DNA of 63,962 nt, the filler included, from Reclinomonas americana ATCC 50394 (lineage: Eukaryota): assembly GCA_048213135.1 (NCBI GenBank). It is 4 parts of 2 records of this genome, joined end to end, with 100 filler letters (N's around TTAATTAATTAA, not from the genome) between each part and the next. Parts side by side here need not be neighbours in the genome. Positions count along the whole stretch, not along the records: positions 1 to 25,672 come from PS015095.1; positions 25,773 to 51,442 come from PS015095.1; positions 51,543 to 59,862 come from PS015095.1; positions 59,963 to 63,962 come from PS015098.1. One strand, 5' to 3'. Position 1 is the stretch's first letter; each line of letters opens with the position of its first letter. This document shows positions 5,734 through 63,962 of the stretch, piece by piece. The notes under the pieces were generated by a model that saw nothing but the letters and a program-made list of their open reading frames with translations, ran no database searches and had not been told where the DNA came from. Position numbers and translations under genes: made by a program.

Positions 5734-8700
5734 TCATGTGGTCAGTGCTGGTGAGTGAACATGAAACGACCGGCGACCGCGCACCTTGGCCAAGTGCGGC
5801 ATCAACTTGCGCTCGCCGGGCGCCAGCGTCTCACTGTGAGGTCCTTTGATTTGCCCGCCGACACTGATAATGGCGTTGATGGATCGCGAGTAGTCCACCA
5901 TGACTTTCTGCAGTGTGGAGTGAGCGCGTGGAAGATGAGCCATTTTCAACACCGGCACCACCGCACCTTGGCGTGTTTCGAGTCGTTGCACAGCAGATAG
6001 CTGTTTGTAATGGCATCACTGTGGCGACCAGGAAAATAATGAGAAGGGCGATGGAAGACAACAAGGCTGCTGCGATAAACCAACCGCGAATGATAGTGAT
6101 ACATGCGCACGTCTTGCACGCTGTCACTGCCGCGCTGCGCCACCAGCGCCACCCATGCGTGCTCGAGAACCGCCGATGAATCCTCCACGCTANNNNNNNN
6201 NNNNNNNNNNNNNNNNNNNNNNNNNNNNNNNNNNNNNNNNNNNNNNNNNNNNNNNNNNNNNNNNNNNNNNNNNNNNNNNNNNNNNNNNNNNNNNNNNNNN
6301 NNNNNNNNNNNNNNNNNNNNNNNNNNNNNNNNNNNNNNNNNNNNNNNNNNNNNNNNNNNNNNNNNNNNNNNNNNNNNNNNNNNNNNNNNNNNNNNNNNNN
6401 NNNNNNNNNNNNNNNNNNNNNNNNNNNNNNNNNNNNNNNNNNNNNNNNNNNNNNNNNNNNNNNNNNNNNNNNNNNNNNNNNNNNNNNNNNNNNNNNNNNN
6501 NNNNNNNNNNNNNNNNNNNNNNNNNNNNNNNNNNNNNNNNNNNNNNNNNNNTTCACGGGCGATGGCATTAGCGCGTACACGAGGAAAACCGGCAGCCTGA
6601 CTGCCACTGATTTTGTCGCGTACCTGGAGAAGCAGCAAGACGAGCCGGTGCGAGCGCTGACACGCACTCTTGGCTACAATCAGGAGCTGCGACTCGTGGG
6701 TCGATGTCCGTTCGCCGTGTCTGTGCACTGGCAGCCGATCATCACGGAGGAGCAGAGCCGATTGGAGGCATTGCTGGAGCTGCTCACTGGAGCGACTTCG
6801 GCGGCCGCCAGCGCACAGCCCAGTGCACAGCCTTCGGCCCCAGCGACGGCACGTCCCACTGGCACCAACGGTCCGGCTCCTCGTCGTCGCGGCAGTCACT
6901 CGGAGGCCGCCGCGCAGCCTTCCGCCGCCGCCGCCGCCGCCGAGCGACGACAGCGTGGATCCATGTCGAATCCGAAGCCAGCCTCCATGGCCCTGGCCGA
7001 GAAGGTGGCGCCAGCGCTTCGCAACCGTGCGGCGGCGCCGGTACGTGGCGAAAAGAAGACGGACAAGAGACAACCGGCGCGCGGTGCGGCTGCTGCTCCG
7101 GCTGCTGCTTCGGGACGCAAGCCGTCCACGACATCGACAGCCACCACCCGTTCGGCGGCTCCCAAGTCGAAGCGTGCCACCGCCACCGCCGCCGCCGCAG
7201 TTGCAACTGGTGGCGGTAAGAGGGGCAAGCCGGCAGCGGCGGCAGCGGCAGCAGCCAATGCCGACCGCGACGCTGACGCCGACCACGACGAGAAGGGAGA
7301 GGCCGACGATGCAGATGGTGACGATGTGGATCGATTCGAGGAGCTGTCTTCCTCGTCGTCGTCGTCCTCGAGTGGCGACGACGAAGACGGCGAGGCTGCC
7401 AAGGCGGCAGCAGCGGAGGCGGCTGTGGCGGCGGAGAGTGAGGCGGTGGCCGAGTGGAGCACCGATGTGACGATGGAGGAGATGCTGCGTGGTGTGCGTG
7501 AGGGACCTGGAGGCGCGATGCGTGCAAGTGCGTGCGAATTGCGNNNNNNNNNNNNNNNNNNNNNNNNNNNNNNNNNNNNNNNNNNNNNNNNNNNNNNNNN
7601 NNNNNNNNNNNNNNNNNNNNNNNNNNNNNNNNNNNNNNNNNNNNNNNNNNNNNNNNNNNNNNNNNNNNNNNNNNNNNNNNNNNNNNNNNNNNNNNNNNNN
7701 NNNNNNNNNNNNNNNNNNNNNNNNNNNNNNNNNNNNNNNNNNNTAGGCGCGAGCACATGGAACCACCGCGTTCCGCCAACAGCGTTCGTAACGTCGCCAA
7801 CTCTTGTTCCGTCAGCTGCTCGTTGCTATCGGCGTCCGCCGTCCAGAATATCTCCTGTGTGATTGCAGCATGGATCAGTCTCAAAACACACACGCACACA
7901 TAAAACTACAGCAGTACCTGAGCCGCGGCGATTGCCCTCCTCGCCAGACTCTCTCCGCCCTTGCGACGCAGTGCCGCCGGCTCCCCGTCTCCATCGTCCT
8001 CGCTCGATGTTCGCGAACCGAGTAGGCAGCCAGTAGTTCTGCACCCCGCTTGTGAGAAGGGTGGGGCGAGCACCAGACGAGAGCGTGCACGCAACATGGG
8101 AACCACGAGGTACGCTCCGGGCTCCAGAATCGCCTCCACCGGCGCAGCATCGTGTGCCCGGCGCAAACCCGACTCGGCCACCACCGTCAGCTGTCCACCC
8201 GGTGCGTCTCCCTTGCGCAACACCAGCACACCGGCGTCGACAGCTGGCTGACTGCTGTCGAATTGCGTCATGGAGACCACCACGTGGCTGCGCTGCGTCA
8301 CGTTGAGAGTGTACGATGTGGTGGTGACCGGCGTGCTGAGTCCGCTGCCCGGGTGCATGAGAGTAAAGGCGCCTTTTACGCGCGCTTCCGACCAATCGCG
8401 GTAACTACAATCCAAACAAAAGAAGCGGTATGTGAGATGACAGAATCTGCGCACCCCATGCACGAGCAAACAAACCGACAGATGGCACAGTGCGCAAAGT
8501 ACTTGACGAAATCCGCAAAACTCATGTACCACTCGCCCCGTTTCTCGTCGGCCTCGCGAAACTTGGATCGCGACTGCGCTGTCCATCTGCAACACAGGTG
8601 AGACAAGTCCATGCAGCAGAACGTCAACCAATAGCAATCACACCTGTGCGAGCGGTGCGACCAGTCGCCCCTCCTACAACCACCACAGTGAGCGACACAA

Positions 8701-11653: not shown

Positions 11654-13164
11654 ATGAGCACGCGGGTAGCTCGCGACCTGCGACCTCCGCGCGACACGCG
11701 ATACTCTCGCAGCTCGTCGCCCACTGTGCGGTTCGTCTACTCTCTCTCTTTCTCCGCCTCTCTTTTCTTTGCTCACTGTCACACACAGACTGTCATGGCT
11801 GGGCACCGATCGCCTGCGCGTCCGTGTTCCACCCGCCGCACACAACGCACTGTGCGAGACTGTGTTCCTCCGCCACTTTTCGTCGCTGGCCGACGAGCGT
11901 GACTTGGGTTGCGTCAACACTCCCCCCCCCTCCTCTCTCTCACTGAACCTCCCCCTTATGCCCTTCCCTTTTCTCCAGCTCGTCGCGTGGTTGACGACGC
12001 GCCACCAGCTCCGCCCGGTTTCACCTCGTTATTGCGCAGCATGGACCAAAAGGGCGCGTTGACATTGGATGGCGACGACGACCTCTCTCTCACCACTCCA
12101 TCCAAGCACAACACGGGACGCGTGACACAACCCTCACGCAAGTTTGCACGCGAGCCAGCAGTGCGTGCACTGGCGGGCAGTCCTGTTGGTGGAGGCGGAG
12201 GTGGCGGAGGTCACCTGCAGCCACCCTCGGCCACGCGTACGAACCGGAGTGGAGCCACGACACGCACCTCGAGTTTTGCTGGGGGGATGAGTGGGCGAGT
12301 GGAGCTGTCGGCACCTGCATCGCAACGCACGGTCTCGGAGGGCGGCGAGGGCATGATGCTGGCGGTGGAGTCGGAGTTGGATGGAGGCGAGCCGGGTCAC
12401 AGTCGCTCACCGTCGTCGCTGGTCGGCACCATGTCGACCTTTACCTCGCCGCAGGAAGGCAAGCCATTGCAGGTGATTTGTGGTGGAGAGTTAGATCGAG
12501 AGACGCATGCATTTTCCTTATTGTTGGGGAGCAGGAGGATTTTGTGTCGTCGGCCACCAAACTGCTCAGCCTGTCGCGTGCACGTCGGTCGTTGGAGCGA
12601 CACGAGAAGCAGTTGGAGGACGACTACTTTACGCGCTCGCTCGCTCGTCGACCGGCTGCGTTCCGAACCGCCGTTTCCGTCCCGAGTCGCCAGTCGCGTT
12701 TCGTGACGCTCTCCGGCGAACGAGTGGTCAGCCTGAACGAGGCCTCGCGTGCACTGGAGGCCCTGCACTTGCGCCAATCGGTGCAGCAGCGTGCCAAGTC
12801 ACCCGTTGCGTGGTCTGGTCACTCACTTTCTCTCCCCGAGCGCGCTTCTCAATTGCTTCGTCGTGTCGTGCAGCAACCACCGGTCGAGGAAACCGACGAC
12901 AAGCCGGCCTTGAACAAGCGCCCTCCGTTCCGCGTGGCCGTGCGCACCCGCTGGTCACCCACCGAAGCGCCCTTTGTCAATTGGCGCGACGAGTGGCGCG
13001 ACACCGACGATCCCATCCGCGACCGAAACCGCACGCCGTCACCGGTATTCGCCCGCGGTTCACAATTCTCACCCGTGGCGCGCGTCTCCCGCACCTCTGG
13101 CGGCGAGCTAGCCAAGACCTTCACCGATCCCTCCACTCCACTCGAACTCGGCAGCAGCTTGTGA
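11654..13164 (+). CDS. hypothetical low-complexity (S/P/R/G-rich) protein (4 exons)
   Basis: Three phase-consistent introns link ORF segments 11642, 11769, 11909 and 12478. No family recognised. Confidence 0.55.
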
Positions 13165-13230: not shown

Positions 13231-15364
13231 ATGAGCGCACGCGCTGTATCCGCGGTTGCACCCTCGACATACATTGCGAATGATGCCACGGAGCTCGTCG
13301 GCAACACGCCTATGGTGTACCTCAACCGCCTCACCGCTGGTGCAGTGGCCAAGGTCGCCTGCAAGATGGAAAGCATGGAAGTTGTGTCCATGCATGCATT
13401 ATGCAAGAGTCACTGTGTGCTGCAGTGCACTCACACATGCTCTCCCTCATGTCTCTCTCTCGCTGTGCCCACACACACACAGCCGTGTTCATCGGTGAAA
13501 GGTGTGCATCTCTCTCTTCAATCTCTCTCTCTCTCTTTCTCTCGTCTCTCTCTGTTTGTGTGTGGTGACATGCACTGCAGATCGCACTGCAAAGAACATG
13601 GTGGACGAGGCAGAGCGTGCAGGCTTGATCACTCGCGGGAAAACGACTCTTGTGGAGCCGACATCGGGGTGCGGAAGAAAACTTCTCACTCTCTCTCATT
13701 TCTCTCTCTCACACACACACACTCTCCCTCTTCTCTCTCTGTGTGTGTCTGCAGCAACACGGGCATTGGGCTTGCCTTTGGTTGCGTTGTGTGTGTCTGT
13801 GCTATGAGTCAATGCATTGCCTCGACCCCGGTTAATAATGCGTCGGATCTTCGTTTCTTTCCGCACAGTGGCCGCCGCTCGGGGATACAAGCTGATCGTC
13901 AGTGCGTCCACACTCGTTCGCCCTCTTGTGAGCGATGCGCTGACTCATTGCATGTGCAGCGATGCCGCAGAGTGTGGCGCTGGAGAAGCGCATGCTGCTG
14001 CGTGCGTTCGGAGCCGAGGTTGTACTCACTCGTTGCGTGCGCAATAGGAGGTGCAGGTGGAGAAGGTGGGGAGATCGCTGACTGTGTGGCCAGCTAACGA
14101 GTACGGCATGCGAGGGTCGCTGGCCAAGGCCGAGGAGATACTCCGCTCCACGCTAGATGCGTTCATGCCGCAGCAGTTCCGGAATCCAGTGCGTTTTGTT
14201 TCTCCAACGCTGTTGTTGTTGTGTGGCCGTTGCTGTGCTGTGCTCACTGATGGTGGCTGCAGGCGAATCCTGGTGCTCACGAGACCACCACTGGCCCAGA
14301 GGTGCGTGTGAATGGCTCCGATTGCACTTCTGCTGTTCTGTTTCTCACGGCTCTCCTCCTCTTTCGCAGATCTGGGAGCAAACGGAGGTGAGCGTAGCGG
14401 CCTGTGGCAGTGTACACCTTTGCTCTCAACTGACGTGTGTCTTGCACAGGGCAAGATCGACATTTTCGTGTCAGCAGTCGGCACTGGCGGCACGGTCAGT
14501 GGCGTCGGCGGCTTCCTCAAGAAACAGAACCCCGACATTCGTGTCATTGGCGTGGAACCGAGCGAGAGTGCGGTGCTCAGCGGTACGTCGTGTTGCAGTT
14601 GCTCATGCTCGAGCTTGCATCTCATCATTGGAGCAGGCAAGCCTCCCGGCAAGCATTTCATCGAGGGCATTGGTACGCTCACTGGTGCACTGACTCACTC
14701 GCGAGAGCGTGCATCGTCTTTGACATTGTGGGCACAGGCGCCGGATTCATTCCCGACGTGTACGACGCCGACGTGGTGGACGAGATCATGACGTGCAGCT
14801 CGGAAGATGGTGTGCTTACTCTCGTTTACCCTCTCCACCTCTCATCCCCTTGTTCATCTTCCTCTTCTTCCTTCTCTTTTTGCCGCAGCCATGCAAGTGT
14901 CTCGCCGAATGGCCAAGGAGGAGGGCTTGTTCGTGGGTATTTCAGCAGGCGCTGCGGTCTGTTACTTCCTCCCCTCCTCTCTCTCTCTCCCATTCAGTGG
15001 CACACTCGGCTGAGACTGGTCGGTCGCTGCAGGTGAAGTGCGCGATCGAGGTGGCGAATCGACCGGAGAACGCCGGAAAGCTGATCTGCTGCATTGTGCC
15101 GTCGTTTGGCGAGCGATGTTGCGCGCATGCCTCTCTGTCCATTGCCCCGCGCGCCGCCATTCTCTCACCAACACGCGCAACCCCTTCACAGATCTCAGCA
15201 CGATCATGTACCGTTCATTGCGAGAAGAGGTCCGTGTGTTTTCATGTTGTCCCTCCCAGGTCCGTCGACAAAGAGACTCACACCTTGTCGATCGATTATC
15301 CTTCGTGGTGTGGCAGTGCCTAAACATGCCGGTGGCCGAGATTCGACCCACCGCCATGTTGTAA
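13231..15364 (+). CDS. cysK: cysteine synthase / O-acetylserine(thiol)lyase, CysK type (16 exons)
   Basis: Spliced motifs: [23 protein letters not shown] (PLP Lys), [76 protein letters not shown]. Confidence 0.96.
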
Positions 15365-15410
15365 AGCGGCGGCGTGCATAAAACACAATCGCTTGTTTCG
15401 CACACACACA

Positions 15411-16343: not shown

Positions 16344-16383
<40 letters not shown>

Positions 16384-16496: not shown

Positions 16497-19253
16497 ATGC
16501 CCGCGATCGAGTACAGTGGCAAAGACTGCATTGCGTGGCTGCGCAGTGTTCTCGTGCCTGCGTCGTCCTCCTCCGCACGAGCACATGTGCGCTTCGACTC
16601 GGTGCATGTGACACTGTGGCAGGCGCTGCAGGATACCATTGCCACACATCGCGAGTGTCTTCCGTTCTTTGCCGAGCACAGACGGTGACTCTCTCGCTCT
16701 CTCTCATAGATAGTGAGAGTTGTGCATACACTGATTCATCTCTCTCTGTGTGTAATCAGTGGTGACAGTCGTCGTCTGTTGCGCGTGGAGGCTGTGTATG
16801 GCTACGAGGGCGATCTCGATGAGGAGATGGAGGAACGCGATCCGGTCGATGAGACTGAGCGATGGCGTTCCTGTTGCGTGTCTGCTGTACACACAACTCG
16901 TCCTCCTTGCGTCTTGACTGAGTGTGTCTGTAGACCTCATGTGGTACGAGTTGCCTGTGCGTTTCGGGGCTCGGGCAGTCATTGTCAAGCCGAACCGTGA
17001 ACCCGTGCAGCCGTTCACGCGTGACGAGGTGCTTTGCGTGCGTGTGTGTATATGTGCATGTATGGGTCAATGCTGAAGTGATGTGATGCAAAAAAAGGTG
17101 AACTTGGTGGACGTGTTTCCGGTGGACTCGGCGACTGCTGGCGACAAGTTGGCTGCTGTGCGGCGTTTGGCGCTGGTTATTGCCTCGGTCAGGCTGTTCT
17201 ACCATGAGTTGTGGGCTCCGTGGGGTGCGTGTTCGCCTGGCATCGTCCGTTGTTGGCTTTCCTCCCCTCACAAACCGCCTTGTAGTGGCGTGCTACGCGG
17301 AACCAGAGTCGTCGTTCATGGAGGCATTCAATGCATCGGTGCAACACTATGAGGGTATCATGAGGTGCTCGGTGGACGTGCAGAGATGTTGGCGCACGGT
17401 GCGTGGATGGCGAACAGGTCGCAGCATGGCCACTGCCCTCGCTCTGTCCATGTGCATTCGGCAGCGGCTGGCGCGCTACCGACAGCGTGTGGGTGACCCC
17501 ACCGGTGCGTCCCGCTGGTTTTGGATTGCACGCGCGCATTCTCTCATACTTGCGGTCACAGCGTATGCCGACGATGAGGACGACTATGAGGAAGACGATG
17601 ATGCTGTTGATGACGGTGAGGAGGAGGCCGAGGATATGGAAACGGACGAAGATGGGGAGGAAGAGGAGGCGGGAGGCAGTGGCAGTCGGAAAGCGCCACA
17701 CAAATCACGCGACTCGGCACGGGCGCTGGAGATGGGGCGGCGAATGTACGAAACTGTGACGCAACTGCGCTCCTGTTTCTACGGGCAGGCGGTGCCGAGT
17801 TGCGTGCATTGCCGCATGCTCATTTTGCGCGGACGTCTTTCCTGACTCCACCGTGCAGTTGATTTCTCCGCATTCAGTGTGACCGACTTGCGTTTCGAGG
17901 AGGCCGTGTGTCGTGCCGAGGTTGTCGCTCACGATGGCGCACTCCGCGAGTTGTTCGAGTTGCCGGGCGAGCTGAGACTTGCTCTGCTGCACAAATTTGT
18001 TGGTGCGCTCGCCTCTCCCGCTCTTGCCTACCTTGCCTCGTGCTGCTCTGAAGTCGACCGCCACACACACGTGCACAGACTCGGTGGTTCACGTGGCTGG
18101 CGAGTCCAGTGCCAGTGGAGCTGGTGGTCGGATTTTTGTAGTGCAGCCGGCCAGCGAGGCAGCGCCAGGACGCAGTGAACTCGACGCTGCGCTGGAGGCG
18201 TACGGACTGCCGGGTGTCGACAAGATGGATGGTGTCCTCACAGCCCCGTCACTGAAAGAGGCGTCGAGCGAGTGGCGTCCGCACGACGTTGTGCTTGTTC
18301 GGCAAGGTTTGTCTTGAACATCGTCGCCCTCTGTTTCTCCTTCACGTCGCCGCTAAACATACCGCGAACAGACGACTCGCGCCACGAGTTGGTCATGATT
18401 GCATGCACGCTCTTTGTGGGCTCCTTCAACCCGGCAGAGCAAGTGCCCGTGAGCAGCCGATTCCACATTGTCGGCGGCAGTGAGGCGGTCGTCACGCTCC
18501 GCAATCTGGTGCTCACCGACGCAATGGCCCCGCGCAAGCCGCCAAAGGACGCCGCCAAGACGTGGGTACTTGCGCGTGATGCCTCGCGCGTTCTCGTAGA
18601 GAACTGTACGCTGGATGGTTTGCAGCACGGCGCGCAGGTCAGTGTGATGTGTGTGTTCGAGTCGACACAACTGAACATACCATTCACTTGCGTCGTCGCA
18701 GGTGCGCGGCATCGGCTCGTCGCTGACCGTTCGCCGCTGCACGATTCGCGGTTCGCGCGATGCAGGCGTTCTGGTCGACTCCGAGTACGAAGAGTGCCCG
18801 CAGTTGGCGCTCGAGCGGCAGCTGCTGCCGGATGCCGCCACGTGGGAGGTGCGCTTGGAGGACTCACTAATCAGTGGATGTTCGCGACGCGAGTCGCGCG
18901 GCGGACTGGCCATCATGCAGCGCCACTGCAGTCGATTGGTGAGTGTCATTCATTTTGCTCTGATGACTGTACCTACTTATACACATTCCCCGAAGGTGCT
19001 GCGAGTGGTGCTTGATCGGGCGCGTTTCGACAACAACGGAACGCAGCGTGGCCGCAAGCCCTCTGGGCAGATTACGATTTTCAAGTCGGACGATGTCACC
19101 GAATTCTTCCGCACTGCTGACCCGTGGAGCGGCATGCAGCTGGAGTTGGTCGACAATGATAGACAGTTGCGCAAGCTGCTGCGCAAGCCCTCTCCTCTGT
19201 TGCGCGTATATAGAGAAGACGACGATGACGGCCCCTCGGCAAGTAGCGAATAG
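16497..19253 (+). CDS. SHCBP1/Nessun dorma-like protein with C-terminal right-handed beta-helix, multi-exon
   Basis: VNLVDVFPV...LALVIASVRLFYHELWAPW and CIRQRLARY resemble SHCBP1 (ALEHVRFFY..IWR.W; C.E.RL). The C-terminal PbH-like repeats read VTLRNLVL, VLVENCTLDG and LTVRRCTIRG. Confidence 0.55.
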
Positions 19254-19325: not shown

Positions 19326-22300
19326 TCAGTCCGCCACTGACGACTCTGACGACGGCGGTGGTGGCGATGTTGACGACGGTATGCTCGCCAGAAGGGCACG
19401 GTTAGTGTCTAGGAGTGCGCACGCATTGGCGTTGAGTTGACGAGTGCTTGGTGATTTTCGACGGACGAGAAGAACTCACCATTCTTGGAGAGAGCATTGA
19501 TGCAGAGGGCGGCGAGTTTCTTCACATGAGGCGATCCGCTCTCGAGTAGCTTGACAATGACAGGCAGGCCTCCCAGCTCACCTGCACGCAACTGTGATGA
19601 ATTCTTGCCACAAGAGACAGAAAAAGCACCAGCACACGAACCGACTCGTCTGCCGGCGGTGGGATCAGTGGCAAGCCGCTTGATGCACACCAGCGCCTCA
19701 CGAGCCACACCCTCGTGCGGGTCGTGAAGCAGCGTGAGCACCACGCCAATGCGGTCCTGTTCGATAAACCACTCCACCACGGACGACACGTTGAGGCAGT
19801 GGCCGGCAATGGCACACGCATTCTCACGGACAAACTCGTTGGCCATCTCGCTCCGCATGAGACTGAGGGTCGGTGGCAACGCCGACAGTGCAACCAGCAA
19901 GTGCCGATTCTCCTCTGTGCTGACAGAGTCAGACAATGACATGCACTCGTTCAAGCACACGTGCGCACGCACCATCAGCGGCGAGGCACATGAGGGCGCC
20001 GGTGACATTCTCCAGCACAGACTGTCGGGCCGCCAGCACCTCCGGATCACCGGTCGACGCCGACGAGCTGTTGAGGCTGGCGTTGCTCATGGCCTTCAGC
20101 GAACTGGTGCGCAGATGACTGGCAGAGTCGGGCGTGGCCGAAGCGCTGTTGCTGCGTCCGCGACCATCCGCACTGCTCACACCGTTGCCGTTTCCGTGGC
20201 CAAACTCCTCTTCCGTCAACAACGACACAGTTTCCGACTCCAGCAGCGACACTAGCACTTCTGCGGCACCACCAGCGCGCAGTTGTGGTTGATTCTCACC
20301 TATTGTGACAGAAACCGAAAAAGGACGAACTTGAGCATGTGCAGAAGACGAGTGGAATGCACACATCTCTGCACGCAACTGAGACGTGCACAACTCCACA
20401 GAATGGCCGCGGCGTAGTCCACTGCGGCATACGTCTGCACTGGCGGCGCTGTGGACGACAATGCGACACCAATGCCATCTGTGCTGCCGGGTCGCGACGG
20501 CGACCGGTTGTTGTGTCTTCGCAGCACGTCAATCACCACCGGAATGCCGTTGTGCGCGACAAACTGGCGACAATTTTCATCTGTGCGCAGGTGTGAGCAC
20601 GACGAGAGCGGCGAAACGAAGAAGACACACCAAAGCAAGACCTTCGGAGCAGCAGTTTCGCAGCGTGCCCAGCACCTTGTCGTTCGTCGCACGCTGTGCC
20701 AGCACGTCGAGGAGAATGCGAACACCACCGGCAGCTCCGATCGGCAAGCGGTTCTCCTGCGCAATCGACACCATCCACAAGATGCCGACCAGCTTCTCCA
20801 CAAAGCCTGCAGGCGCCGACTTGCCCTCTGCTTGCAATAATCGGCACACCACATCAATGCTGCACACATCACGCGATTCTTCGTCAACAACCTACACATC
20901 GTATAAAAAGCAATGGCACGCAAACAGACCCGCCGACTTGCTGAAACGCCGCCTTGTTTGTGTCGTTGATGACACAGTTGCGCAACGCACCGGCCGCATT
21001 CTCACGCGCATTCCACGAGGTTCCATACTCAACCACATGCAAGAGCGGGGCGAGGCCTTGTGCCTTGCGAATGGCGATGCGGTTTTCACCGACTGATGCA
21101 CAATTCCACAGAATGCCAGACACGTTTTCCAGCAGCGGCACATTGTCGGTGTGCAGCAGACCCACCAACACGGGGATGGCACCGAGTTCTCTGGAGATAC
21201 GCCGTCATGGTGAGAAACACGAATGTGGAGGCCAACAACAAAAAAGAAGGAGTGCATGCACACACCGAACGAGTTGCTTGTTTGGATTGTCGACGACCAA
21301 GTTCCACAACGCACCGGTAACATTCTCGAGAAGTGCAGGATCGCTGTGGGTGGCGCACACGTTGGAATGGCGTCGACAAAGGGGAGAGAGCAGAGTGAGT
21401 TAACGCAACGACGATTGACTCAGCAACGCCAGCAACGCATGCAGGCCGCCCACATCGCGAATGGTGATGCGATTCTCCGGCACCGAAGCACAGTTCCACA
21501 GCGCAGCCGCTGCCTTGCTGACCACACTGGGCGAGAGAGGCTCCGACACTCGCGGACCACGACCGTCCTCGTCCGGATCCAAGCCGAGAATGGCCGTGGT
21601 CAGCACGCCCACCAACGCCGACAGGCCGCCGTTCTCTCGCAGCACCACCTACGCCGACAACCATTGAGCATTTTTGAGTCGCGTCAGAGGTCGCAACCTT
21701 CCCCTCCCCACATACCACACACACATACACACACACCTTATTAGTGTCGTTTCGCGAAAGGTAGCCGAGCGCAATGGTGGCATTCTCGACGACATCCTCG
21801 GACTTGGAGTTCACGCAGCGCACCAAAATATCGAGGCCGCCCATCTCCCGCACAGCGTCCTGCATCGCGTCCACGAAACGTGAACAGGAGGAGGGGAGGG
21901 GCATGTGGCGAGGATACATACACGTACTGACCATGTTCTCCGGCAGTGAGCAGAGATTCCACAGCGCGGCCAGACACTTCTCTTGCACCATGGTATTGGA
22001 CGATCGTGCACCCGTCAGTAATGGTGCCACAGCACCCGCCTGTGAACAGTGCTGCTTGGCAGTCGTCGAGTCGCACAGATCACCCAGCACATGTGCGGCT
22101 GTCAATGCCTTCAGTGAGCTCTCGGCAACTCATGACAAACGAGGAGGTGTGCAGACAGACCCTCAATCTTGACATCGTCGTTGATCGAGTGCAGCAGACG
22201 CACCAGACGCGCGATAAACGAACCCGTTGGCGCCGCACCAACGCCGTCACCACCTTGCATCGTCGCGGTCTCACTTGTCGCCTGCTCCTCGCGCACCCAG

Positions 22301-39958: not shown

Positions 39959-41841
<1,883 letters not shown>

Positions 41842-51384: not shown

Positions 51385-51442
51385 TGTGCGCCGTGACAGT
51401 GAGGGCGGGTGGGTGGACGGCGCCGCGAGACACGCGCTTCAA

Positions 51443-51542: not shown

Positions 51543-54500
51543 TTGCTTCTCCAAGAAGGCGCGTTTCCAGCGCAACACCTACGTCTACAACGAGAGCTCC
51601 GGCGAGCTCGTGGCCAAGTCCAAGACGCGTCAACAAGGGTCCATTCGGATCAAGAACAACGAGGTCGCGGTGCGCGCCTTGCACGTCAAGCCACACACGT
51701 ACAGTGTCGACATTTCAACTCCAGTGGAGGGCGGCTCCCTGGAAGTTCGCCGTGTGGAGATTGTGTACAATCCGGCAACCAACACGTTGGTGGTCAGCGA
51801 GCAACCACGAGTGAGTTTCTATTGGGTTCCCCCGTTTTGCCACTGCAGCGTTGTCGGCCCCTCTTAACGCAAGAATGACCTGGGGTGCAGGTTCCGCTGG
51901 CCAGTGTGGCGTCGGACATTATCACATTTGGTGTCGGCACTGGCGTCGAGCAAGTGACGTGGGCGGCCGAAGCACGCGGTCTTACCGTGTCCGGTCACCT
52001 GGAGTCGGCCAGCGAGGATGCGACGGAAACCGACATTGAAAAGGTGGAAAAGCGCATCAACCGCTTGCGTCAGCTGGGCGCAGAGGCCTCACGCCCGCTG
52101 GCGCTGGCGGCGCGCATCATGGCCGGTCTCGGCCTGGTCAAGAGCGTGGTGGCGTCCCCGGAGACGCCCGCGTTCCTGGTCCACGTCATCAAGTTCCTCA
52201 CCCAGAAGCTGCAACACCGCGATCAGTTGGATCCGCGAGGTTTGTGTGCACACGCTCGCTCTCGTTTGATCATGTTTCACAATTCGCTGACACTTATTAT
52301 TTCTCCTCCTTTTGTCATCGCCAGCCTTGTTGCTGCTGCGCTCAATCATGGCCGACTGCCTCTTTATCGCACGACGCCTCACGCGCGACAGCACCGTGGC
52401 GGCTCGTGTCGCCGAGGATGCGGCGGCGGCAAGTGGCGCCGGTGGTGACTCTTCGTCACACCAGATGGCTGTGGGCTTGGCCTCTGCGTTCACCGCCCTG
52501 CGTGAGTTGGAAACCGCGCTTGCGTCCTCCTCCGATGCCGAAGACTTGAGTCTGTGCGAGGAGTGCGGCAGCATCTGCCTGAAGGCCTATGGCCTCTCGT
52601 ACTCGCCCGCCGATGTGGTGGATCGTGTGTCGCAGGGTTGTCGCGAGGGACACTCGCAGGCGGAGTTGCGGTACGCTGTGCAGTTGCTGCGACATGCGGC
52701 CAAGAACCCGCAGATTGTGCACAAGCTGATGTTCTCGGTGAGTGCCATCATCTTGTATGTGTGTGGCCGGCCATCTCGCGTGCGTTCCATTCTGACCTCA
52801 TGTGCGCACGCAGGTGACGGAAGAGGGTCGAGTGAACCACTTCGTCGCCTACATTCTGCGCTTGGTGGCCACCATGGCCGAGGGCGAGTTGACAGCCGTG
52901 CAGGGAACCATCCTGACTGAACTCATTACCATCGCCTGCAACGCGTTCTATGGTGCCACTGATCTGTCGCAAGTGTCGCACGTCGTGGCCATGCAAGTGC
53001 AGTGCATGGTGGAGCTCATTAGCGAGCCGGTGAGTGTCGCCTGCTGCATGGTGCGCGCTCCCGTTATCGCGCCCTGTGTTTGACTGTGGATGGATGTCGC
53101 CGCAGGCGTGGGGATTCGAGAAGCGCGCCATTGCGCTGACGCAGCTGGCACCCGTGTTCTTTGCCGTGTGCCACCAGGCTCTGAGCCTGATTCCGTCGCT
53201 GGCGGATCTCATTTCCGAGTCGCTGCCGGTTCGTCTGCTTGTTTGTTTGTTTGACTGGACTCACTCGTGGCTCTCTGTTTACACCTTGAGTGTGCCTGCA
53301 GATGGAGAAAATCACGTCGCAAGTGTTGCGCTACTGGAGCGCCATTTCGCTGCCGCTGATGTCGCTGTTGGAGGAGCTGCGCTCGTTGATTCACGCCGTG
53401 TCGCCGCTGCGTCCCATTCACCTGCCGCCCAGGTTGCGTGGAGAGAGCAATAGTGTGTTCCGTTCTCTTTGTGCTTATCAGGCGTGGCGTTGTTCTTCCC
53501 CCCTTGCAGTCACGTGACGGTGCTGTCGTTCCACGTTGCCGATGTGGAGCGTCTCACCATTAGCTCGCTGATTGACATTGTGGAGGGCTGCGTCATGTCG
53601 GCCCCGGCCTTGCTGCTGTGCCAAGCAGTCGACACGACGCACCAAACGGAGACGGCGTACTTTTTCACTGGCCCACTTGGCGTCGACGGCCTCGACCAGG
53701 ATGTGCCCTCGATTCGTCGCGGTCCCTCGTCGGCGGCTGCGGGAGCCGAGCTTGCTTTGTTGCGTTGCATACAATACATGTCGCTGTGTGCGCGAGACAC
53801 TCATCACTTCGAGGTCTACGGCAGTGTCCCACCGCAGATCCGTCAGATTCTCTCGCAGAGTCTGGGAATGGCGTTGAATGCTGATGTGAGTGGCGAGTGT
53901 GTGTGTGGCAACTGGAGGGGAGCACAAGTAGTCCACACGACTCACTGTAAAGCACTGTGCAGGCCACGCGGTCGCCCACGTCGGCGGACTATGCAGCAGC
54001 GGCGGCGGCGCCCACCGTCGATCCCATGAGCGAGTGTCACCCGGGTGTTCGCATCCTGCAGCACATTTTGCGTCGGCAACTCGAGAAGCAGGTGCCCCCC
54101 CCCCCCCTCCTTTTACATTTTGTCGACTTCCGTTCTCCCTGTTCCTCATCACATTCGACATGCAGGTTCCCGACTTTGTCAGCAAAACATTCGGCGGACC
54201 GTGCCCTCGTCATGTGGCCGAGCCTGGCTCAGAGGCCGCACTGGCCGACGAGGTGGCAGAGCTGTTTGTGCAGCGCTTCTCCAAGACTTCGGTATGTTGA
54301 TTTTTTATTCGCTACGCGATGTCACCGCGCTCCTCACACCCCACGCTGTGCTTCGCAGTCTGTGAAGCCGCCTCGCGGGTTCGAGGAGTCGTCCGAGGGC
54401 GTCGAGCTGGCCTTCCAGTGTGTGGCCATTAAGAATCTGCACTTGGTCGAGGAGATGTACGAGGTTGCGCTGCAGTTGTCGCAGCGGGATTCCGACGGCA

Positions 54501-57500
54501 GCCGTGTGGATCCAATGTTGCCTCCGGAGCTGGTGAGCTCGTGGAAGAACATCAATCGCATAGTGGCGCTGGCGCTGCGCGATTTGAAGCAGCAGCAGGC
54601 CACTGCGTACGACGAGTTCAAGGCGTCACCGCAAGGTGTGTATCTTGTGTGCTGCCTCGTTTTCGTGTGTGTACCTGTGTGTGCCGACACGTGCGTCTGC
54701 AGCGACGGCTCACGATCGCAGCGAGGAGGGCAAGCATGCGTGGCTGCAGGCGCGATGGGCCGCGATGGTGGCCGACCTGCTGGCCAAGGCCGATTTGCTG
54801 TTTTGCTTCAAATACGTGAGTGCTGATTGCTGTGGCGTGTATTGGGATGCACAATTTCACCGTGGCTCTCCTCCGTGCAGCGACCGACCGATGGACCCGA
54901 CGCCTCCCTCTTCAGCCCTGATCCCGACTTTTTGGATCTCACTCGTACGCACTCGATTCCGGAGCGCAGGTTTGCAATGTGTCCACCCACAGGCAACTGT
55001 GGTGCTGTTGCTCACCCCACATGTTTTTTTCTTTTTGCGTGATCAGTGGTGCGTCTCTGATTGACGCAGTGGCAACTCCGGGTGTTCGTGGCCACAATCC
55101 CTTCGCGGACACCACTCCCCGTGCGTCTCCCTTCCCGTACGCGGTTTGCTTTCACGTGTATTGTCGACTCACCACGCAGTGTGTGTGCAGTGGTGTCTGG
55201 TTTCGAGGCGCGTGGCGTCGATTCCGCGCACCTGTCCAAGTACACTCTGGCACTGAAGCAGTTCTTCCTGCGCGATGGCGTCGACGTCACTCGACTGTAC
55301 GATCTGGCGATCAAGGACGCGGAAAGTGTCTACTACTATGCGGCCGGCCTGCAGTTGCTGTGCCGTCTGCTCGATCTGGCCACCGACCCGCAGCTGGCCA
55401 CTCCTGCGCCACGCTCGGCCTCCGACATGGCCTCTATGTTCCAAGTCAGCGTACAGCAGGCGGAGAAGGCTCATGCGCCGTCCTTGAGCTCGCGTGTGCT
55501 CACCGTGTTTGAGCGCACGCTGTTCCGACGCATGGTGGCCAACAAGTGGTTCCAGCTGCTCCGTTGCGTAATGCCCGCCCTTGCGTTGTATGTGATCTGT
55601 GCCGCTGTTTGCTGAAATTATGGTGCACGCACTGCAGCTGGTCACTCGGTGTTGAGTCGTGCCGACACGACGTGCTCGGTGATGAATGTGCTGTCGCATC
55701 ATTTGCCGCACATCAAGCCAGTGGAGCGTGACGCCCTCATGCTGCTGTTGGACACGGCGTTCCACAAGACTTTGTCGCTGGCGTCTCCCGGTGCCGACGA
55801 CGACGATTCGCCAGCACTGCTGTTGGCGCACTTGTTGCCGCTCTGGAGCATCTTCTGCTTCGGGTATCACGAGCGAGGCCACTTTATTGAGTTTGTCAAG
55901 CGCGTCTTGTCCCTGGTGGGCGATGTTGCGTCCCTGAAACTGTGTGGGGGAAGTATCTGTGTCTGGTGCGCTGACGATGGTGGGTTGCGCAGGCCACCCC
56001 CGGCGGATGGGAACTCTTGCAGTTGCTGGCACTCTGCAGCAACTCGTCGGTCGACACGGGCAAGGAGATCCGCCGCTCGGCGCGCGCCCAGATGAATGCC
56101 GCCATCAACGGCGTTATTGACGTTTTCCTGACTGTTGCGAGTGAGCTGGTGGCGTACGCCCGCGACGGACGCGCAGTCTTTACGGACGAGATTGTCGCGG
56201 CTGAGGAGCGCGTGCTGGACATTTTGTCGCTCTTCACCATGGTTGGACGAGCGGCGAAGCCCAACGCGCCCAACCACCCACTGGCGCTGCTGCGCGAGTC
56301 GAACAATTGCATCCTTCTGGTCGAGGTTTGTGTGTATGTTGTCTTGCGTAGACTTGTGTGAGCGCACCCCCACACACACCCTCGCTTCGCCTGCGACAGC
56401 TGTGCTTGATCAGGGGCATCTCGGCCGACGTGGTGGAGTGGGGCTCGCTGCTGCTCGCGTTGCTGCTGGCCCCACAGAATCCGGCGTTGGTGCAGAGCTG
56501 GCGCAAGGATGGACAGAAGGTACCTTGCCTGCATTCCTGTTTACTTTCTCGCAAACCGTCTCTCACTTGTGCGCTCTCCGTTTGTGCAGCGCAACATCAT
56601 TCTGGAGCTGTTCCGTGCCGCCGCTCCGGCACACGACCCGGCGTACTCGCGCACGCCTGTATTTGCAGTAGACGCGTCCATGACCAAGCAAGATGCCAAG
56701 GTGCGTAGCGGCACTCGCATTTGTGGTCGGCCACCACGCTAAAAAATGTGGATGCAGATTTTGGAAGATGTGTCGTCGGCTGCCGGTGCGACGCTGTTTG
56801 AGACACCCAACCGGTATGCGCGTGCGCTGGCCGCTGATACTCGTCGCCGACCGCTGGCAGCAGCTGGTGCTGCCGCCGCCAAGTCCACGGCAGGTGAAGG
56901 CAGCGGCAGCTCAGCGCCATCCTCTTCGTCCTCGTCGGCCGCGGCACCGACGGCCGCAGCGGGTGGTGATGTGGCACATGCCGGCCGCAAGCGACCTTCG
57001 CACGAACTCACGGACGACGACAGCGGCACCGATGGCGGCGCTGACGATAGCGAGGTGTTGGGATCGCCGGTTGTTGGATCACCGGCCAAGACTCGACCAC
57101 GCTCAGCGTCAAGTGGTGAGGAGGTGCAGTTGACTGCGCCGTCGCAGTCACCAAATCGGTAAGTTCACTGCATGGTGTGCTCTTTTCTTGAAGCATTGCG
57201 CTGATCGGCGGTCTTATAGCCGCGTTGCGACATCTGCCATGCTCAAGTCGGTGGCTCGCCGACTGGTGCAAGACCTGTCGCTCATGTCGAACGAGTGGAG
57301 CTCCTTCTTCTTGGAGCACATTGTTTCCTCCAACATTCTCTGCGATGATGTGGATGCGCCAGTGGCCGATCCAGCCACCGAGTTGCCAACGAAACTGATC
57401 ATCGAAGGCCTCTCTTCGGCGCGTGAAATCGCCGCGGGCGACACCTTCAATGTCGCGTTTGGCCGGTCGGTGGTGGTCGTGTTCACGTCGGTTTTGGTGC

Positions 57501-59862
57501 CGCCGGAAGAGGACAAGAAGCCGGCAGCCTCGGGTGACAAGGCCAAGGACGACAAGAGCAAGAAGCCTGCCGAACCCACCGACCAGTGCATGGTGTATCC
57601 GCTGCCATCGAGCGGTACCATAACCGGTGTCCCGTTGGTGAGTCTTCGACATTTGTTGCTGCTGCTTTTCTATGCTGCGATGCTGAGATGGAATGGTCGT
57701 GTTTGCAGATCCCGCAGCTGCAGGCCGTGGCGCGGGAGTCGCTGCGTCGCGATGCCTTCTCGGCTGGCACCGACGGTGTCACCCTTGAGCACCTGCAGCA
57801 GAGCATTATCGAGTCTCTGCAGAAGACTGTGCACGAGGATGCTGGTGGGTGCTCGTTGAGAGTGTGAGTCTGTCGGCACGTCGCTCATCGTGTCTCTCGC
57901 CAGGTGCTCACATTGCCTCTCTTGTCACTACGGTGTTCAACGAGCACCTGGCGGTGAAGCTTGGTCGCAACGACCTGTGGACGGAGCCGTACGAGATTGT
58001 GGAGAAGGACGACACGCAGTCGCTTGTCTTCAATTCTCCGTTGCGTCCCGTCAGTGCATGTGTGCTACTGGGGCTGTCGACTCAACAAGTGTTCCCGTTT
58101 GCTCTTTGGTGCGCACAGGTTTGTCAACAGCGGCCTCATGTGGACGTCGGTGGGCCAGCGCGTGCTGAATCCGGGCACGTCCATGTACTTTGAGGTGGAG
58201 GTCATGCACTCTGGATCGATTTCATCTGGTCGCTTCGCTGTTGGTGTTTGCCGCCCGAAGGCGTTCACCGCCCTGATGGAGACCGTCTGCTTGCCGACTC
58301 CGGGTACACGCGTCGGCTGCGGCGTGTGCTCCACCGACGACCGCAACATTGTCTTCTTCACGTTCAACGGGCAAGGTACGCTTGGTGGTGTGCAGTAACG
58401 CAGCGCTGCTGTGTGCGTGTGCTGACTTGACAGTCTCAACAGTGCGCACAACGTACCCGATGTTTGACGGCGATTTTACTCCGTGCATTGCGATTGAGAA
58501 CGACGAGACCAAGCTGCGCATTGTGAGCAAGCCCAAGGTGGTGGATCCGCACTCGCGTCTCTCCAAGCTCTTCCTGCTCAGCTTCCCGCGCGCGTATCGG
58601 TGAGGGATGCGACGTCTCGTGCATGACTTGTGTCGGTGACTCACCGTCGTGATTGACATCTGTAGCGATTTTGTGCGCTTCACGAAGCAGCGCGCCTCCA
58701 CGGCATCCACGCAGGTCTCTTTCCTGCGCATCTTTAGCCGCCTGTTGACCTCGCTGCCGAAGCAGATTGCTTGTGCGTGTTCGTTGGGGGTAAAAATTTG
58801 TCGACTCACGGCGTGATTGCTGACCTCGCCGCACACAGTGGCCACCGATGTGATTCCGACCTTCGTGCGCATGGTGCGCAGCCTCCAGCTGGAGGTGCGA
58901 GATGGCAAGCCAGCGGTACGTGTGGAACAGGGCGGAGCAGAGGGAGAGTCGCAATGACGCTGAGTGTGCATTCGTGACCGCAGGACCATGAGTATCTGTT
59001 GGCTGTCGAGCGCGACGCGGAGCAGGTGTTGGTGTCGCGCCTGCGCGTCCTTACCGATGTGGTCATTCAGCTGGCCAACAAGAGCCAGAAATTGCACTTG
59101 CCGCGTCTGTCGGACGCCGTGCGCCTGGCCAAACTGTTGGTTGAGGAAATGGACGTGATGAGCGTGTCGCGCAGCGTGTCGCTCGACAATGTGCAGAGTG
59201 CGTTGTCTCGCTTTGTGGAAGTCATGGATGAGCTCGGTGCGTCGAGTGTGTGTGTGTGTGTGTTTGTGTGTCTGTTTGTGTGCGTGTGACTGAAGCTGAG
59301 CGCTGACAATGGCACAGGCTCGTACCCGGTGGTGGCTCTGTTGAACTGGATCGCCTCGGTCCCGCACCCGAACCCGGTGCATTACAAGGGCGTGATCAAG
59401 ACGCTCTTCCAGCGTCTTGACGAGAGCGTTGCGTAGGAGAGGGGGCATGCAGTGGTGATCGCACCACGGAACTTACCGCCCAAATAATGGCGTTTTGCAG
59501 AATTTGGTCGAGAATCTGTCGCTGGTGACGACACTGAACAAGGTGGGTTGTGTCGATGTATGTGTGTGATCCATGCGCATTCTTTACTCATGTGGTGTTG
59601 CACGCAGAGCATTCCGAGTCAGAAGATGATTCGCGATGCAATGGTCGAGGTGATCTTTATGCGCATGGCGCAGCTGATGGAGACGGCCACTCGTGACGGC
59701 TCGTTCGCCGAGTTGCAGCTGTCGCTGGCAGAGTATCTGTCTGCTGCCGAGGTGGCGGTGAGTAGCATGGAATCCGTGTGTGCGCCGCCGCGCATATATA
59801 CATCTCATTGTGTTGTGGTTCTTGCAGATTTCGCCGTTCGAGCCGGAGGACCCGTCGCTGCA
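51543..59862 (+). CDS. internal part of a giant helical-repeat protein with a SPRY/B30.2-like domain; both ends truncated
   Basis: About 25-30 phase-consistent exons fill the whole contig with no start or stop. SPRY-like segment at about 58120-58520: YFEVEV...FAVGV...GTRVGCGV...VFFTFNGQ...FTPCIAI. Confidence 0.8.
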
Positions 59863-59962
59863 NNNNNNNNNNNNNNNNNNNNNNNNNNNNNNNNNNNNNN
59901 NNNNNNTTAATTAATTAANNNNNNNNNNNNNNNNNNNNNNNNNNNNNNNNNNNNNNNNNNNN
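59863..59962. other. artificial contig-join spacer
   Basis: N44-TTAATTAATTAA-N44. Confidence 0.97.
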
Positions 59963-62106: not shown

Positions 62107-63962
62107 TCATTGGAGAGCAGGAAACGCGAATGATAATCTGTCTCGCCCACCGGTTTCCGCTTCGTTACGACTCGGCCTCGGCCAGTGACGCATCTGCAAC
62201 AGCTCGTGTGTGAGTGAAAACAGTGCAGCTACAAGGAAGCAGTGCACGGGGGAATCGTCCACCTTCGCCATCGTCATCGTCCACGACGGCCGCAGTGGCC
62301 AGCAATCCCAGCAGCTCCTGGTTGAACCGGAAGCGCAGTACGTGCGCCTGTTCCCGAATGAAGCAGCGAAGCACCAGCAGCGGCAGCGGCTCGGACCACA
62401 TGTCCATTCCACCCACTTCGTGCTCGTCTTCGCTTTCGTCATCATCGCCACTCAACAGCATGTCCACTTCGCCACTCCCGCCACCACGGTCTGCCGCCTC
62501 CGCCAGATCATCGTCCATTTGCTGCTGCTGCTCCCGTACCTCTCGTAATGCCTCCATGGCGTCATACACGGCCACCATCTCCTGCTCCATGCACCATCGA
62601 GAGCCCCACAAGCCTGCAACCACAACCATGAATCACACTTGTCGCACACTCTCCCACGCACACAAACAATCAACAACAAACCATGCTCCCACAATCTCGC
62701 CGTGCGGTCAAAGCTGCCGCTCACAATGCGGCCATCCTGCAGAAAGGCGGCCGAGTACACACTGTCACCGTGGCCCTCACACACGGCGACGCACACACCC
62801 GACTCGACGTGCCACACGCGCAGAGTGTGATCTGTTGAGACACACATCGGGTGAGAGGACACACACGGAGCAGCGACAGATTCTTTGCACAAACGCAACC
62901 AGGCGAGGCACTGACAACGTGTGACCCGTCAGTGGAGAAGCAGAGGCTCCACACAGAGCCCTCGTGACCCTCTAGCGTGCGCACTATTTCGCCTCGACGC
63001 AACGACCACACCACAATACGACTGTCTTGGTGACCGCTCACCATGGTGTCACCGTCGGGCGACAGCGCCAACGAGAACACAGGACTCTCGGCAGGCAACG
63101 AGCGCACCAACTCGCCCGTCTCCACCTTCCACAATTGAATCACACGGTCCCACGACCCGCTGAGCAGGAGATCGTCGTCGGGTGTCAACTCCAGCCCAAA
63201 CACCGCATTCGCGGGTCCCTGAATGACACGCACACACTCGCCAGTGGCCGCCAGCCACATGCGAATCGATCGCTCCCGTGAACCACTAAACACGTACAGA
63301 TTGTTGCGTGTCACCACCAGACACCGCACACCATCCGTGTGCCCCACCCCGCGCCACGCCAGCCGTCCACCACCAGGCCCGTGCCCGTGTCTCTGCAACA
63401 GACCCGACAGGTCCCACATCACCACGGCCTTGTCCCAGCCGCCACTGACCAAGCGGAAGGGGTCAGTGGGCGAAAAGAGCACGGCATAGACGCCGCGCGT
63501 GTGACCCTCCAGCACGCTCAACAACTCAAAGCCGTCACCATCAAACACGCGCACTTTCTTGTCTGAGCACGCTGTCACCACCAGTTGGCGGACCTGCGGG
63601 GTGGTGAAGAAGGGTGAGGGAGGGAGGGGGAAGGAGGCGAAGGAGCGAGGAAGGGGGGAAGGAGTGGAAGGAGGGTGAAGGAGGGGGAAGGAGGGAAAAG
63701 GAGGGAAGAGGAGACTGAGAAGGAGGAAGGAGGGGAAAGGAGGGGGAAGAGAGGGGGAAGAGAGGGGGAAGAGAGGGGAAGGAGGGGAAGGAGGAGGAGG
63801 AGGAGGGGGAAGAGTGGGGGGAGACTGAGAAGGAGGAGAAAGGAGGGGAAGGAGGGGAAGGAGGGGAGGAGGGGAAGGAGGGGAGGAGGGGAGGAGGGGA
63901 GGAGGGGAGAGAGGGAGGAGGGAAGGAGGGACTGCTGTACGGCCAAGGCGGATGTACGGTAC
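62107..63962 (-). CDS. WD40-repeat protein, 5' end outside the window, 3' end approximate
   Basis: At least 7 GH...WD-type repeats (LEGHTRGVYAV.FSP, SGGWDKAVVMWD, SGSWDRVIQLW, SASPDHTLRVW, SGSFDRTARLW), followed by an acidic tail. Confidence 0.92.
63604..63930. repeat. purine-rich (GGA/GGGGAA) low-complexity tract, intronic in the WD40 gene
   Basis: About 325 nt of almost only G and A on the + strand, bounded on the - strand by a GT donor near 63932 and a CAG acceptor near 63594. Confidence 0.85.

Follow-up and report, generated by a model that had tools for sequence, protein, structure and literature searches.

Few rules of intron recognition are as conserved as G at the fifth intron base (+5) and a fixed register of U1 on the 5' splice site, and the stretch of Reclinomonas americana ATCC 50394 DNA studied here raises the question of whether a donor sequence that lacks this G, namely GTTGCG (usually GTTGCGT), is used on a large scale, and of how it would be recognized. 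The whole stretch that was analyzed, hereafter the window, comprises 63,962 bases with ~56% G+C and 15 N gaps, and is very intron-dense eukaryotic DNA in which the modal intron length is 60–79 nucleotides (nt). Judged from sequence evidence, the GTTGCG sites are very probably true and frequent donors, and the results given below indicate that GTTGCG(T) is a genuine, abundant class of U2-type GT-AG introns, with a share of the introns estimated, roughly, at one in five to one in three.

An earlier, sequence-only reading of the window had listed 38 such donors, and direct checking showed that every one of these positions reads GTTGCG on the strand given for it:

Plus strand, motif present: 11908, 13781, 14032, 15118, 16873, 27056, 27253, 27798, 29991, 32050, 36132, 36584, 37383, 38808, 45067, 45777, 46203, 46657, 47242, 47431, 48357, 53433, 55563, 55925, 58040, 59428
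Minus strand, motif present: 8095, 20379, 21409, 22869, 23012, 23210, 23522, 25223, 41461, 41627, 41762, 62899

Junctions Placed by Protein Homology

Homologue profiles for MYST, TreS, CysK, and ODAD2 were used to score all in-frame, stop-free pairs of cuts that lie no more than some tens of bases from an exon end, with no prior for GT-AG. Thirty of the 38 junctions scanned in this manner were resolved, and the donor is GTTGCG at nine of them, three each in CysK, TreS, and MYST. All nine protein-restoring cuts yield an intron that begins with GT and finishes with AG, a GT...AG pair being best or co-best among 1130–2342 candidates. For six junctions (13781, 14032, 15118, 36132, 36584, and 41762) this pair tops all 1130–1932 candidates, and for 37383 and 41627 the GTTGCG pair lies ≤0.2 bit below the top and 7–8 bits over the next GT-AG pair. 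The ninth, 41461, is weakly resolved; its three best pairs share the donor and have acceptors 6–9 nt apart, with the next donor at 25.3 bits. The nine introns, followed by two ordinary introns as comparators, are:

13781..13868, plus strand: CysK intron, donor GTTGCGT; best of 1609 cut pairs, 25.5 bits; next GT-AG pair 15.2
14032..14093, plus strand: CysK intron, donor GTTGCGT; best of 1339 cut pairs, 58.5 bits; GTGCGC donor 5 nt downstream 51.2
15118..15191, plus strand: CysK intron, donor GTTGCGC, restoring GERYLST; best of 1700, 32.6 bits; next GT-AG pair 18.2
36132..36268, plus strand: TreS intron, donor GTTGCGT; best of 1446 cut pairs, 117.3 bits; next GT-AG pair 103.2
36584..36642, plus strand: TreS intron, donor GTTGCGA; best of 1130 cut pairs, 125.8 bits; next GT-AG pair 112.6
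37383..37445, plus strand: TreS intron, donor GTTGCGT; best GT-AG pair 54.4 bits (overall top 54.5); next 47.0
41697..41762, minus strand: MYST intron, donor GTTGCGC at 41762; best of 1932, 22.1 bits; next GT-AG pair 17.8
41560..41627, minus strand: MYST intron, donor GTTGCGT at 41627, restoring YDGTNRRLDEW; best GT-AG pair 31.8 bits (overall top 32.0); next 23.5
41389..41461, minus strand: MYST intron, donor GTTGCGT at 41461, weakly resolved; three best GT-AG pairs with this donor 26.5, 26.3, and 26.1 bits
13902..13959, plus strand: ordinary CysK intron, donor GTGCGT; best of 1061 cut pairs, 45.4 bits
35514..35582, plus strand: ordinary TreS intron, donor GTGAGT; best of 1598 cut pairs, 123.3 bits

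Both 14032 and 41627 are followed, 5 nt downstream, by a perfect ordinary donor, the use of which scores worse or breaks the frame. Gene models spliced at the homology-scored cuts align with their homologues over the full length. The earlier proposal that cutting before the first G restores conserved motifs held for GERYLST in CysK and YDGTNRRLDEW in MYST, both of which are seen in the homology-scored cuts. Its description of ordinary donors as carrying G at +5 agrees with 18 of the 21 resolved non-GTTGCG junctions (GTGCGT, GTGAGT, GTTCGT, GTACGT, GTCTGT, GTGTGT, and similar), and the frequencies that it gave, 9 of 44 introns and five of six in the FN3 gene, are about right, since GTTGCG is the donor at 9 of the 30 junctions resolved here, and in the FN3 gene the five donors were found again.

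Homologues of ARMC4/ODAD2 resolved four ordinary donors, and gave no signal at 22.8–23.6 kb, the region of sites 22869, 23012, 23210, and 23522. Pfam searches on the exons flanking GTTGCG donors returned domain names only and nothing at the level of junctions. One intron of this gene has two candidate donors side by side, possibly an alternative 5' splice site that adds or removes one codon:

21344..21409, minus strand: ODAD2/ARMC4 intron, tandem donors GTCGTTGCGT 3 nt apart; 87.3 bits for GTTGCGT at 21409, 90.7 bits for GTCGTT at 21412 (upstream)

Gene Prediction Blind to the Donor

Introns were also predicted by a gene finder based on dynamic programming, which weighs codons by log-odds, scores acceptors with a matrix, applies a prior on intron length, masks by strand, and asks of the donor only that it be GT. 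A version without the strand masks, which found only 11 of 22 confirmed introns, was discarded. Of the 22 introns that had been confirmed by then, 16 were among the 167 predicted by the donor-blind parse, and GTTGCG was its commonest donor hexamer (22/167), with GTGCGT at 8 and GTGAGT at 7. This is in line with the view taken earlier that GTTGCG forms a major, highly stereotyped class. When the parse was filtered without regard to the donor (YAG acceptor, length 45–160 nt), 125 introns were left, comprising 62 with G at +5, 22 with GTTGCG, and 41 others. Twenty of these 22 GTTGCG introns are among the 38 proposed, and the other two, at 12805 and 17799, are new. In the list below the donor is supported by the donor-blind parse, whilst the coordinates are those of a second, donor-trained parse (EM parse), in which the gene finder was allowed to learn donor 4-mers:

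27056..27129, plus strand: FN3 gene intron, GTTGCGT
27253..27314, plus strand: FN3 gene intron, GTTGCGT
27798..27880, plus strand: FN3 gene intron, GTTGCGT
29991..30060, plus strand: FN3 gene intron, GTTGCGC
32050..32186, plus strand: FN3 gene intron, GTTGCGT
38808..38876, plus strand: intron downstream of the TreS domain, GTTGCGT
46657..46717, plus strand: acyltransferase-gene intron, GTTGCGC
47242..47308, plus strand: acyltransferase-gene intron, GTTGCGC
47431..47507, plus strand: acyltransferase-gene intron, GTTGCGT
53433..53509, plus strand: intron of the large unannotated gene (51.5–59.9 kb), GTTGCGT
55925..55992, plus strand: intron of the same large unannotated gene, GTTGCGT
58040..58118, plus strand: intron of the same large unannotated gene, GTTGCGT
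59428..59500, plus strand: intron of the same large unannotated gene, GTTGCGT
16873..16978, plus strand: SHCBP-like gene intron, GTTGCGT
25147..25223, minus strand: RabGAP-TBC gene intron, GTTGCGC at 25223
23129..23210, minus strand: ODAD2/ARMC4 gene intron, GTTGCGT at 23210; region poorly resolved
12805..12873, plus strand: intron not proposed earlier, GTTGCGT
17799..17877, plus strand: intron not proposed earlier, GTTGCGT

The donor-trained parse placed GTTGCG at 44 of 239 introns and recovered 35 of the 38 proposed donors. Support that is independent of the donor sequence therefore extends to 25 of the 38, nine through homology (41461 weakly) and 16 through the donor-blind parse, and this part of the original list stands. 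The remaining 13 lack such support, 11 of them (21409 included) appearing in the donor-trained parse only and two, 8095 and 20379, in no parse.

Motif Enrichment and Strand Bias

Counting both strands, GTTGCG occurs 97 times in the window, as against 66.77 ± 7.78 times in 100 dinucleotide-preserving shuffles, none of which reached 97. With gene strands assigned from Pfam matches and the gene map, 74 copies are sense and 23 antisense, and for GTTGCGT the ratio is 38:5, whilst the control hexamers are balanced (GTAGCG 8:10, GTCGCG 34:38, and GTGGCG 68:56). At ~51 copies, the sense excess is as large as the donor class that was proposed, and it agrees with the number of predicted donors. Among the ordinary donor sequences, GTGCGT is also sense-biased, at 77:28, and GTGAGT, though used as a donor, is unbiased at 35:37.

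It could be argued that many of the listed sites are not donors at all, GTTGCG being enriched through codon or composition bias, a repeat, or a family of transposon-derived introns, with the true splice sites elsewhere. This explanation may draw on the 13 sites without independent support, two of which are in no parse, on the ~30 sense-strand copies of GTTGCG that are not predicted donors, and on the tendency of the trained gene finder to over-call GTTGCG, as seen at 22.8–23.2 kb, where its GTTGCG introns leave exons of 0–3 codons. Homology also contradicts the donor-trained parse at several ordinary junctions, and because this parse over-calls, the introns taken from it were used only for flanking positions outside its training. 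Homology can mislead in its turn, since one odd resolved donor, GTCTTT at 35670, may instead be GTGCGT at 35691 with a 7-residue insertion. Nevertheless, homology places nine of the sites in competition with every other possible cut, the sense excess matches the number of predicted donors, and GTTGCG still comes first in a parse that is blind to it. An origin as an introner or transposon-derived family was examined by all-against-all blastn of 176 intron bodies, which yielded two pairs with 15-nt matches at chance level; the bodies are thus without similarity, and the introns are therefore not a recently spread introner family. Taken with this, it is very unlikely that the GTTGCG sites are for the most part not donors.

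Properties of the GTTGCG Introns

After filtering, the donor-trained set held 176 introns, of which 36 have GTTGCG donors, 91 have G at +5, and 49 are singletons. Under positional independence 1.6 GTTGCG donors would be expected in this set, compared to the 36 observed, and there are no GTAGCG, GTCGCG, or GTGGCG donors, though GTGGCG (124 copies) and GTCGCG (72 copies) are common hexamers of the window. Ordinary donors vary freely at +3 and +4, whereas the GTTGCG class is invariant through +6, with the core GCG in 36/36, and has T or C at +7 in 35 of its 36 members.

Further downstream the two kinds of intron are alike. A branch-like CTVAY motif is found in the last 50 nt of 25/36 GTTGCG and 56/91 ordinary introns, at a median distance of 19 nt in both, and the pyrimidine fraction upstream of the 3' splice site is 0.60 and 0.58, respectively. 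Median lengths are 73 nt (GTTGCG) and 70 nt (ordinary), the G+C content of the intron body is 0.55 in both, and the intron phases are distributed 18/13/13 in the GTTGCG class and 51/32/34 in the ordinary class. With 3' halves that are indistinguishable from those of ordinary introns, the GTTGCG introns are therefore assigned to the major (U2-type) spliceosome, as introns with an unusual start, and they are presumably spliced efficiently.

A U12-type reading was rejected, in that the donor is not RTATCCTT and there is no TCCTTRAY branch site, CCTTRA being found in 0/36 of the introns. The GTTGCG class does resemble U12-type introns in being a second, highly stereotyped donor class beside a degenerate major class, but it differs from them in these sequences, in having the 3' signals of the major class, and in its far higher frequency, U12 introns typically being under 1% of introns.

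Register of U1 Recognition

The likeness of GTTGCGT to the ordinary donor GTGCGT suggests a way in which it might be read. A normal donor, (T/A/C)G|GTGCGT, would be read one base out of register, such that H|GTTGCGT is aligned to HG|GTGCGT. The first G of the intron would take the slot of the last G of the exon, the second-base T would face the slot of the normal first G, and the third-base T would take that of the invariant second-base T, with GCGT then following as usual. The U1 small nuclear RNA (snRNA) would accordingly pair, by its 5' end, one nucleotide shifted, with a single U-C mismatch, whilst the later steps (U6, U5, and Prp8) would still cut before the first GU; if the cut is made there despite a shifted U1, then U6 must tolerate one extra nucleotide. 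Both the U1 register and the accommodation by U6 are inferred from sequence, and on balance we lean, with only modest confidence, towards recognition of GTTGCG donors by U1 in this one-nucleotide-shifted register.

The evidence that bears on the register comes from T at +7 and from the exon base at -1, positions which had no role in choosing the introns. T is found at +7 in 28/36 GTTGCG donors but in 17/91 donors with G at +5 (p = 7e-10), a frequency that matches that of T at +6 in ordinary donors (61/91). At -1, the base is G in 3/36 GTTGCG donors, compared to 61/91 of those with G at +5 (p = 7e-10) and 14/25 GTGCG donors; this is below the background of ~28% (p = 0.008) and is not different from G at -2 in ordinary donors (17/91, p = 0.18). 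The donor-blind set agrees, with G at -1 in 2/22 GTTGCG and 39/62 +5G donors, and T at +7 in 17/22 and 21/62. Expressed as log-likelihoods, the fit of the exon side is -25.1 when unshifted and -0.2 when displaced by one base, and that of positions +7 to +9 is -9.5 and +24.8, respectively. The class thus combines absence of G at +5 with G at +6, which is part of its definition, and with T at +7, as is characteristic of shifted sites. The idea put forward at the outset, that GTTGCG(T) is GTGCGT displaced by one base, is upheld by the mirroring of the ordinary T at +6 by T at +7 and by the occurrence of T alone at +3.

A different account would keep U1 and U6 in the normal register and bulge out one U of GUU (a +2/+3 bulge), with no shift of the helix. 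The number of base pairs would be the same as in the shifted register, either U of the GUU run could bulge, U6 would have to absorb an extra base under either model, and a bulge at +3 (or +2) is reported as validated in human cells (PMC4856993). A bulge would also explain why T alone occurs at +3 (36 vs. 0), something that fits the shift equally well. A bulged helix, however, retains the exon slot, so that G at -1 should be kept or enriched (folding gives -5.6 kcal/mol with G at -1 and -0.3 kcal/mol without it), and yet this G is depleted in the GTTGCG class. The shift is favored over the bulge for this reason, and the bulge is considered rather unlikely. Whereas the bulged U had been offered earlier as the first option, it is the one-base offset of the flanking preferences, and with it the shifted register, that is retained here.

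Two shift-like donors with other cores were also placed by homology:

13381..13482, plus strand: CysK intron 1, donor GTTGTGT; best of 1589 cut pairs, 34.1 bits; next GT-AG pair 28.0
41249..41325, minus strand: MYST intron, donor GTTCCGT at 41325, weakly resolved; best GT-AG pair 77.3 bits (overall top 78.9); next 75.6

These resemble GTGTGT and GTCCGT, respectively, each displaced by one T, which suggests that the shift is a general register effect.

Some considerations weigh against the shifted register as proposed. Nearest-neighbor folding with the canonical 5' end of U1, which was taken from PMC4856993 and from which that of the organism itself may differ, gives only -0.3 kcal/mol for the GTTGCG consensus, compared to -5.6 for GUGCGU and -10.0 for GUGAGU, and therefore predicts neither a shift nor a bulge to be stable unless U1 differs or proteins help. 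The uniform GCG core, far more stereotyped than the ordinary class, is not predicted by a shift of a loose consensus, nor is it the best pairing for canonical U1, which leaves room for an adapted or second U1, an effect of U6, or a protein adaptor. Most of the class statistics, moreover, are drawn from predicted introns, the U1 register is read from sequence statistics alone, and 64 kb of one genome are covered.

The same observations could be taken to favor a dedicated or co-evolved snRNA that reads the class by full complementarity. This might be a second U1 whose 5' end fits GUUGCGU, or else U1 and U6 that have jointly adapted to GCGU cores, and the class would then have a recognition route of its own instead of using the ordinary one out of register. 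In its favor are the extreme uniformity of the class, including T or C at +7, beside ordinary donors that vary at +3 and +4, the negligible pairing with canonical U1, of which a GCGU core is not the best partner, and the fact that snRNA adaptation has been raised by Irimia and Roy, as a possibility to explore, for the GTGCGTG donors of Ostreococcus (PMC2483917). On the other hand, the shift-like donors with other cores point to a general register effect, the 3' signals and lengths are identical to those of ordinary introns, and an Rfam scan of the window gave no match at gathering thresholds and, at E ≤ 1, three chance-level matches with no snRNA among them. A dedicated snRNA is thus regarded as unlikely. 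A bolder proposal, and a quite improbable one, is that the major spliceosome has two parallel 5' splice-site channels, a loose one for G|GTNNGT and a strict one for |GUUGCGU with its own U1 (perhaps U6) variant or protein adaptor, handling a quarter or more of the introns; if true, the strict channel would functionally be a third intron class beside the U2-type and U12-type.

Comparison With Known Systems

Shifted and +2/+3 bulge registers of U1 have been established experimentally in human cells, where, by the account in PMC4856993, ~2.1% of 5' splice sites fall, after curation, into one or other of the noncanonical registers. As described for the human shifted-register sites (Roca and Krainer, 2009, as summarized in Tan et al., 2016, PMC4856993), the GTTGCG donors are initiated by GU, match U1 best one base off, lack G at +5, have G at +6, and are cut at the first GU. 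They differ from these in that one shifted sequence is here the commonest donor hexamer, at 13–30% of donors, that the core is GCGU rather than AAGU, and that the register is read from statistics rather than from suppressor U1 tests. With the bulge +2/+3 sites (Roca et al., 2012, cited in PMC4856993) they share a GUU followed by the consensus bases of +3 to +6, that is, one extra U. The exon-side pairing is kept at those sites, however, and the abundance differs too.

Ostreococcus lucimarinus has been reported to have strict GTGCGTG donors and GACTGACG branch sites (Irimia and Roy, 2008, PMC2483917), and the ordinary class of the window is similarly GTGCGT-flavored, with CTGAC-like branch motifs. 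That genome is intron-poor outside chromosome 2, and no GTTGCG class is mentioned in the portions of that report drawn on here (PMC2483917), whereas introns are extremely dense in the window and the ordinary donors there follow a loose pattern (GTNNG). Right-handed and left-handed 5' splice sites, under LUC7 paralogues, have been described in animals and plants (Kenny et al., 2025, PMC11842720). There, as here, two donor classes differ in exon-side vs. intron-side match, the information of the GTTGCG class being all intron-side. The LUC7 classes as described share one register and form a continuum, whilst the GTTGCG class is discrete and offset by one base.

A full-text literature search for GTTGCG or GUUGCG donors revealed no such class among the titles and abstract openings of the top-ranked matches. 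What appears to be new, judging from the window, is that a noncanonical register, a rare exception in humans, would here provide the single commonest donor. Out-of-register donors are known only as ~2% human oddities proved singly with suppressor U1s, and a genome in which the commonest donor is out of register would offer hundreds or thousands of natural test cases, in which to ask how U1 binding is uncoupled from the choice of cleavage site, how U6 deals with the extra base, and whether there is co-evolution of snRNAs or U1-associated proteins with splice signals. Should RNA data confirm the class, this genome could serve as a natural model in which to study how the site of cutting is located by the splicing machinery. 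On a practical level, training a gene finder on GTNNGT donors would lead it to mis-splice at least a fifth of the introns of this organism, and the donor-trained parser used here itself mis-called several junctions.

Genes of the Window

The gene map was built from Pfam matches on stop-free open reading frames (ORFs) and one PDB search:

About 1–1.6 kb, minus strand: Nop52 gene
About 4.6–5 kb, plus strand: IscU gene
8–11 kb, minus strand: calpain gene
13.2–15.5 kb, plus strand: CysK gene
16.7–19 kb, plus strand: SHCBP-like gene
19.4–24 kb, minus strand: ODAD2/ARMC4 homologue
24.4–26 kb, minus strand: RabGAP-TBC gene
26.8–35 kb, plus strand: gene for a giant FN3 protein
35.2–37.8 kb, plus strand: bacterial-type TreS gene
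39.9–42 kb, minus strand: MYST acetyltransferase gene
About 44–48.4 kb, plus strand: acyltransferase gene
51.5–59.9 kb, plus strand: large unannotated gene
About 61.2–61.7 kb, minus strand: phosphopantetheinyl transferase (ACPS) domain
62.4 kb to the end of the window, minus strand: WD40 protein gene

The closest matches in the protein collection, from which the proteins of the window itself are absent, are 74–81% identical over exons, with a best full-length identity of 55–63%; for MYST and CysK the nearest named matches are from green algae and plants. CysK (13231–15400, plus strand) has at least 13 introns per ~320 codons and one exon of 19 nt (13483–13501), an intron density that is among the highest known. 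The TreS gene (35175–37779, plus strand) is of bacterial type and has at least 11 spliceosomal introns, three of them with GTTGCG donors, and when the model is spliced at these cuts, residues 1–511 align with P0123 at 57% identity. A metagenome scan with one TreS exon returned only uninterrupted matches of 53–65% identity, which were taken as bacterial, and did not find a related eukaryotic TreS locus. The gene is probably an old horizontal acquisition that introns have colonized since.

The armadillo-repeat gene (19400–24000, minus strand) is a homologue of outer dynein arm docking complex subunit 2 (ARMC4/ODAD2), with E = 9e-12 to chain 8j07_m7, and its presence implies that the organism builds motile cilia. 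At 51547–59860 on the plus strand lies a predicted gene of at least 1880 codons and ~39 exons, with up to eight GTTGCG donors, for which the tested exons (three in the case of PDB) gave no Pfam or PDB match. The stretch at 48000–51600 has low G+C (0.375 vs. ~0.56), large N gaps, and no Pfam match in ORFs of ≥80 amino acids, and could represent an island of repeats or transposons, or else a region whose assembly is poor. Paired blocks of 44 N with exactly 12 bases between them are found at 25673–25772, 51443–51542, and 59863–59962, something that looks like a pattern of assembly or masking rather than biology.

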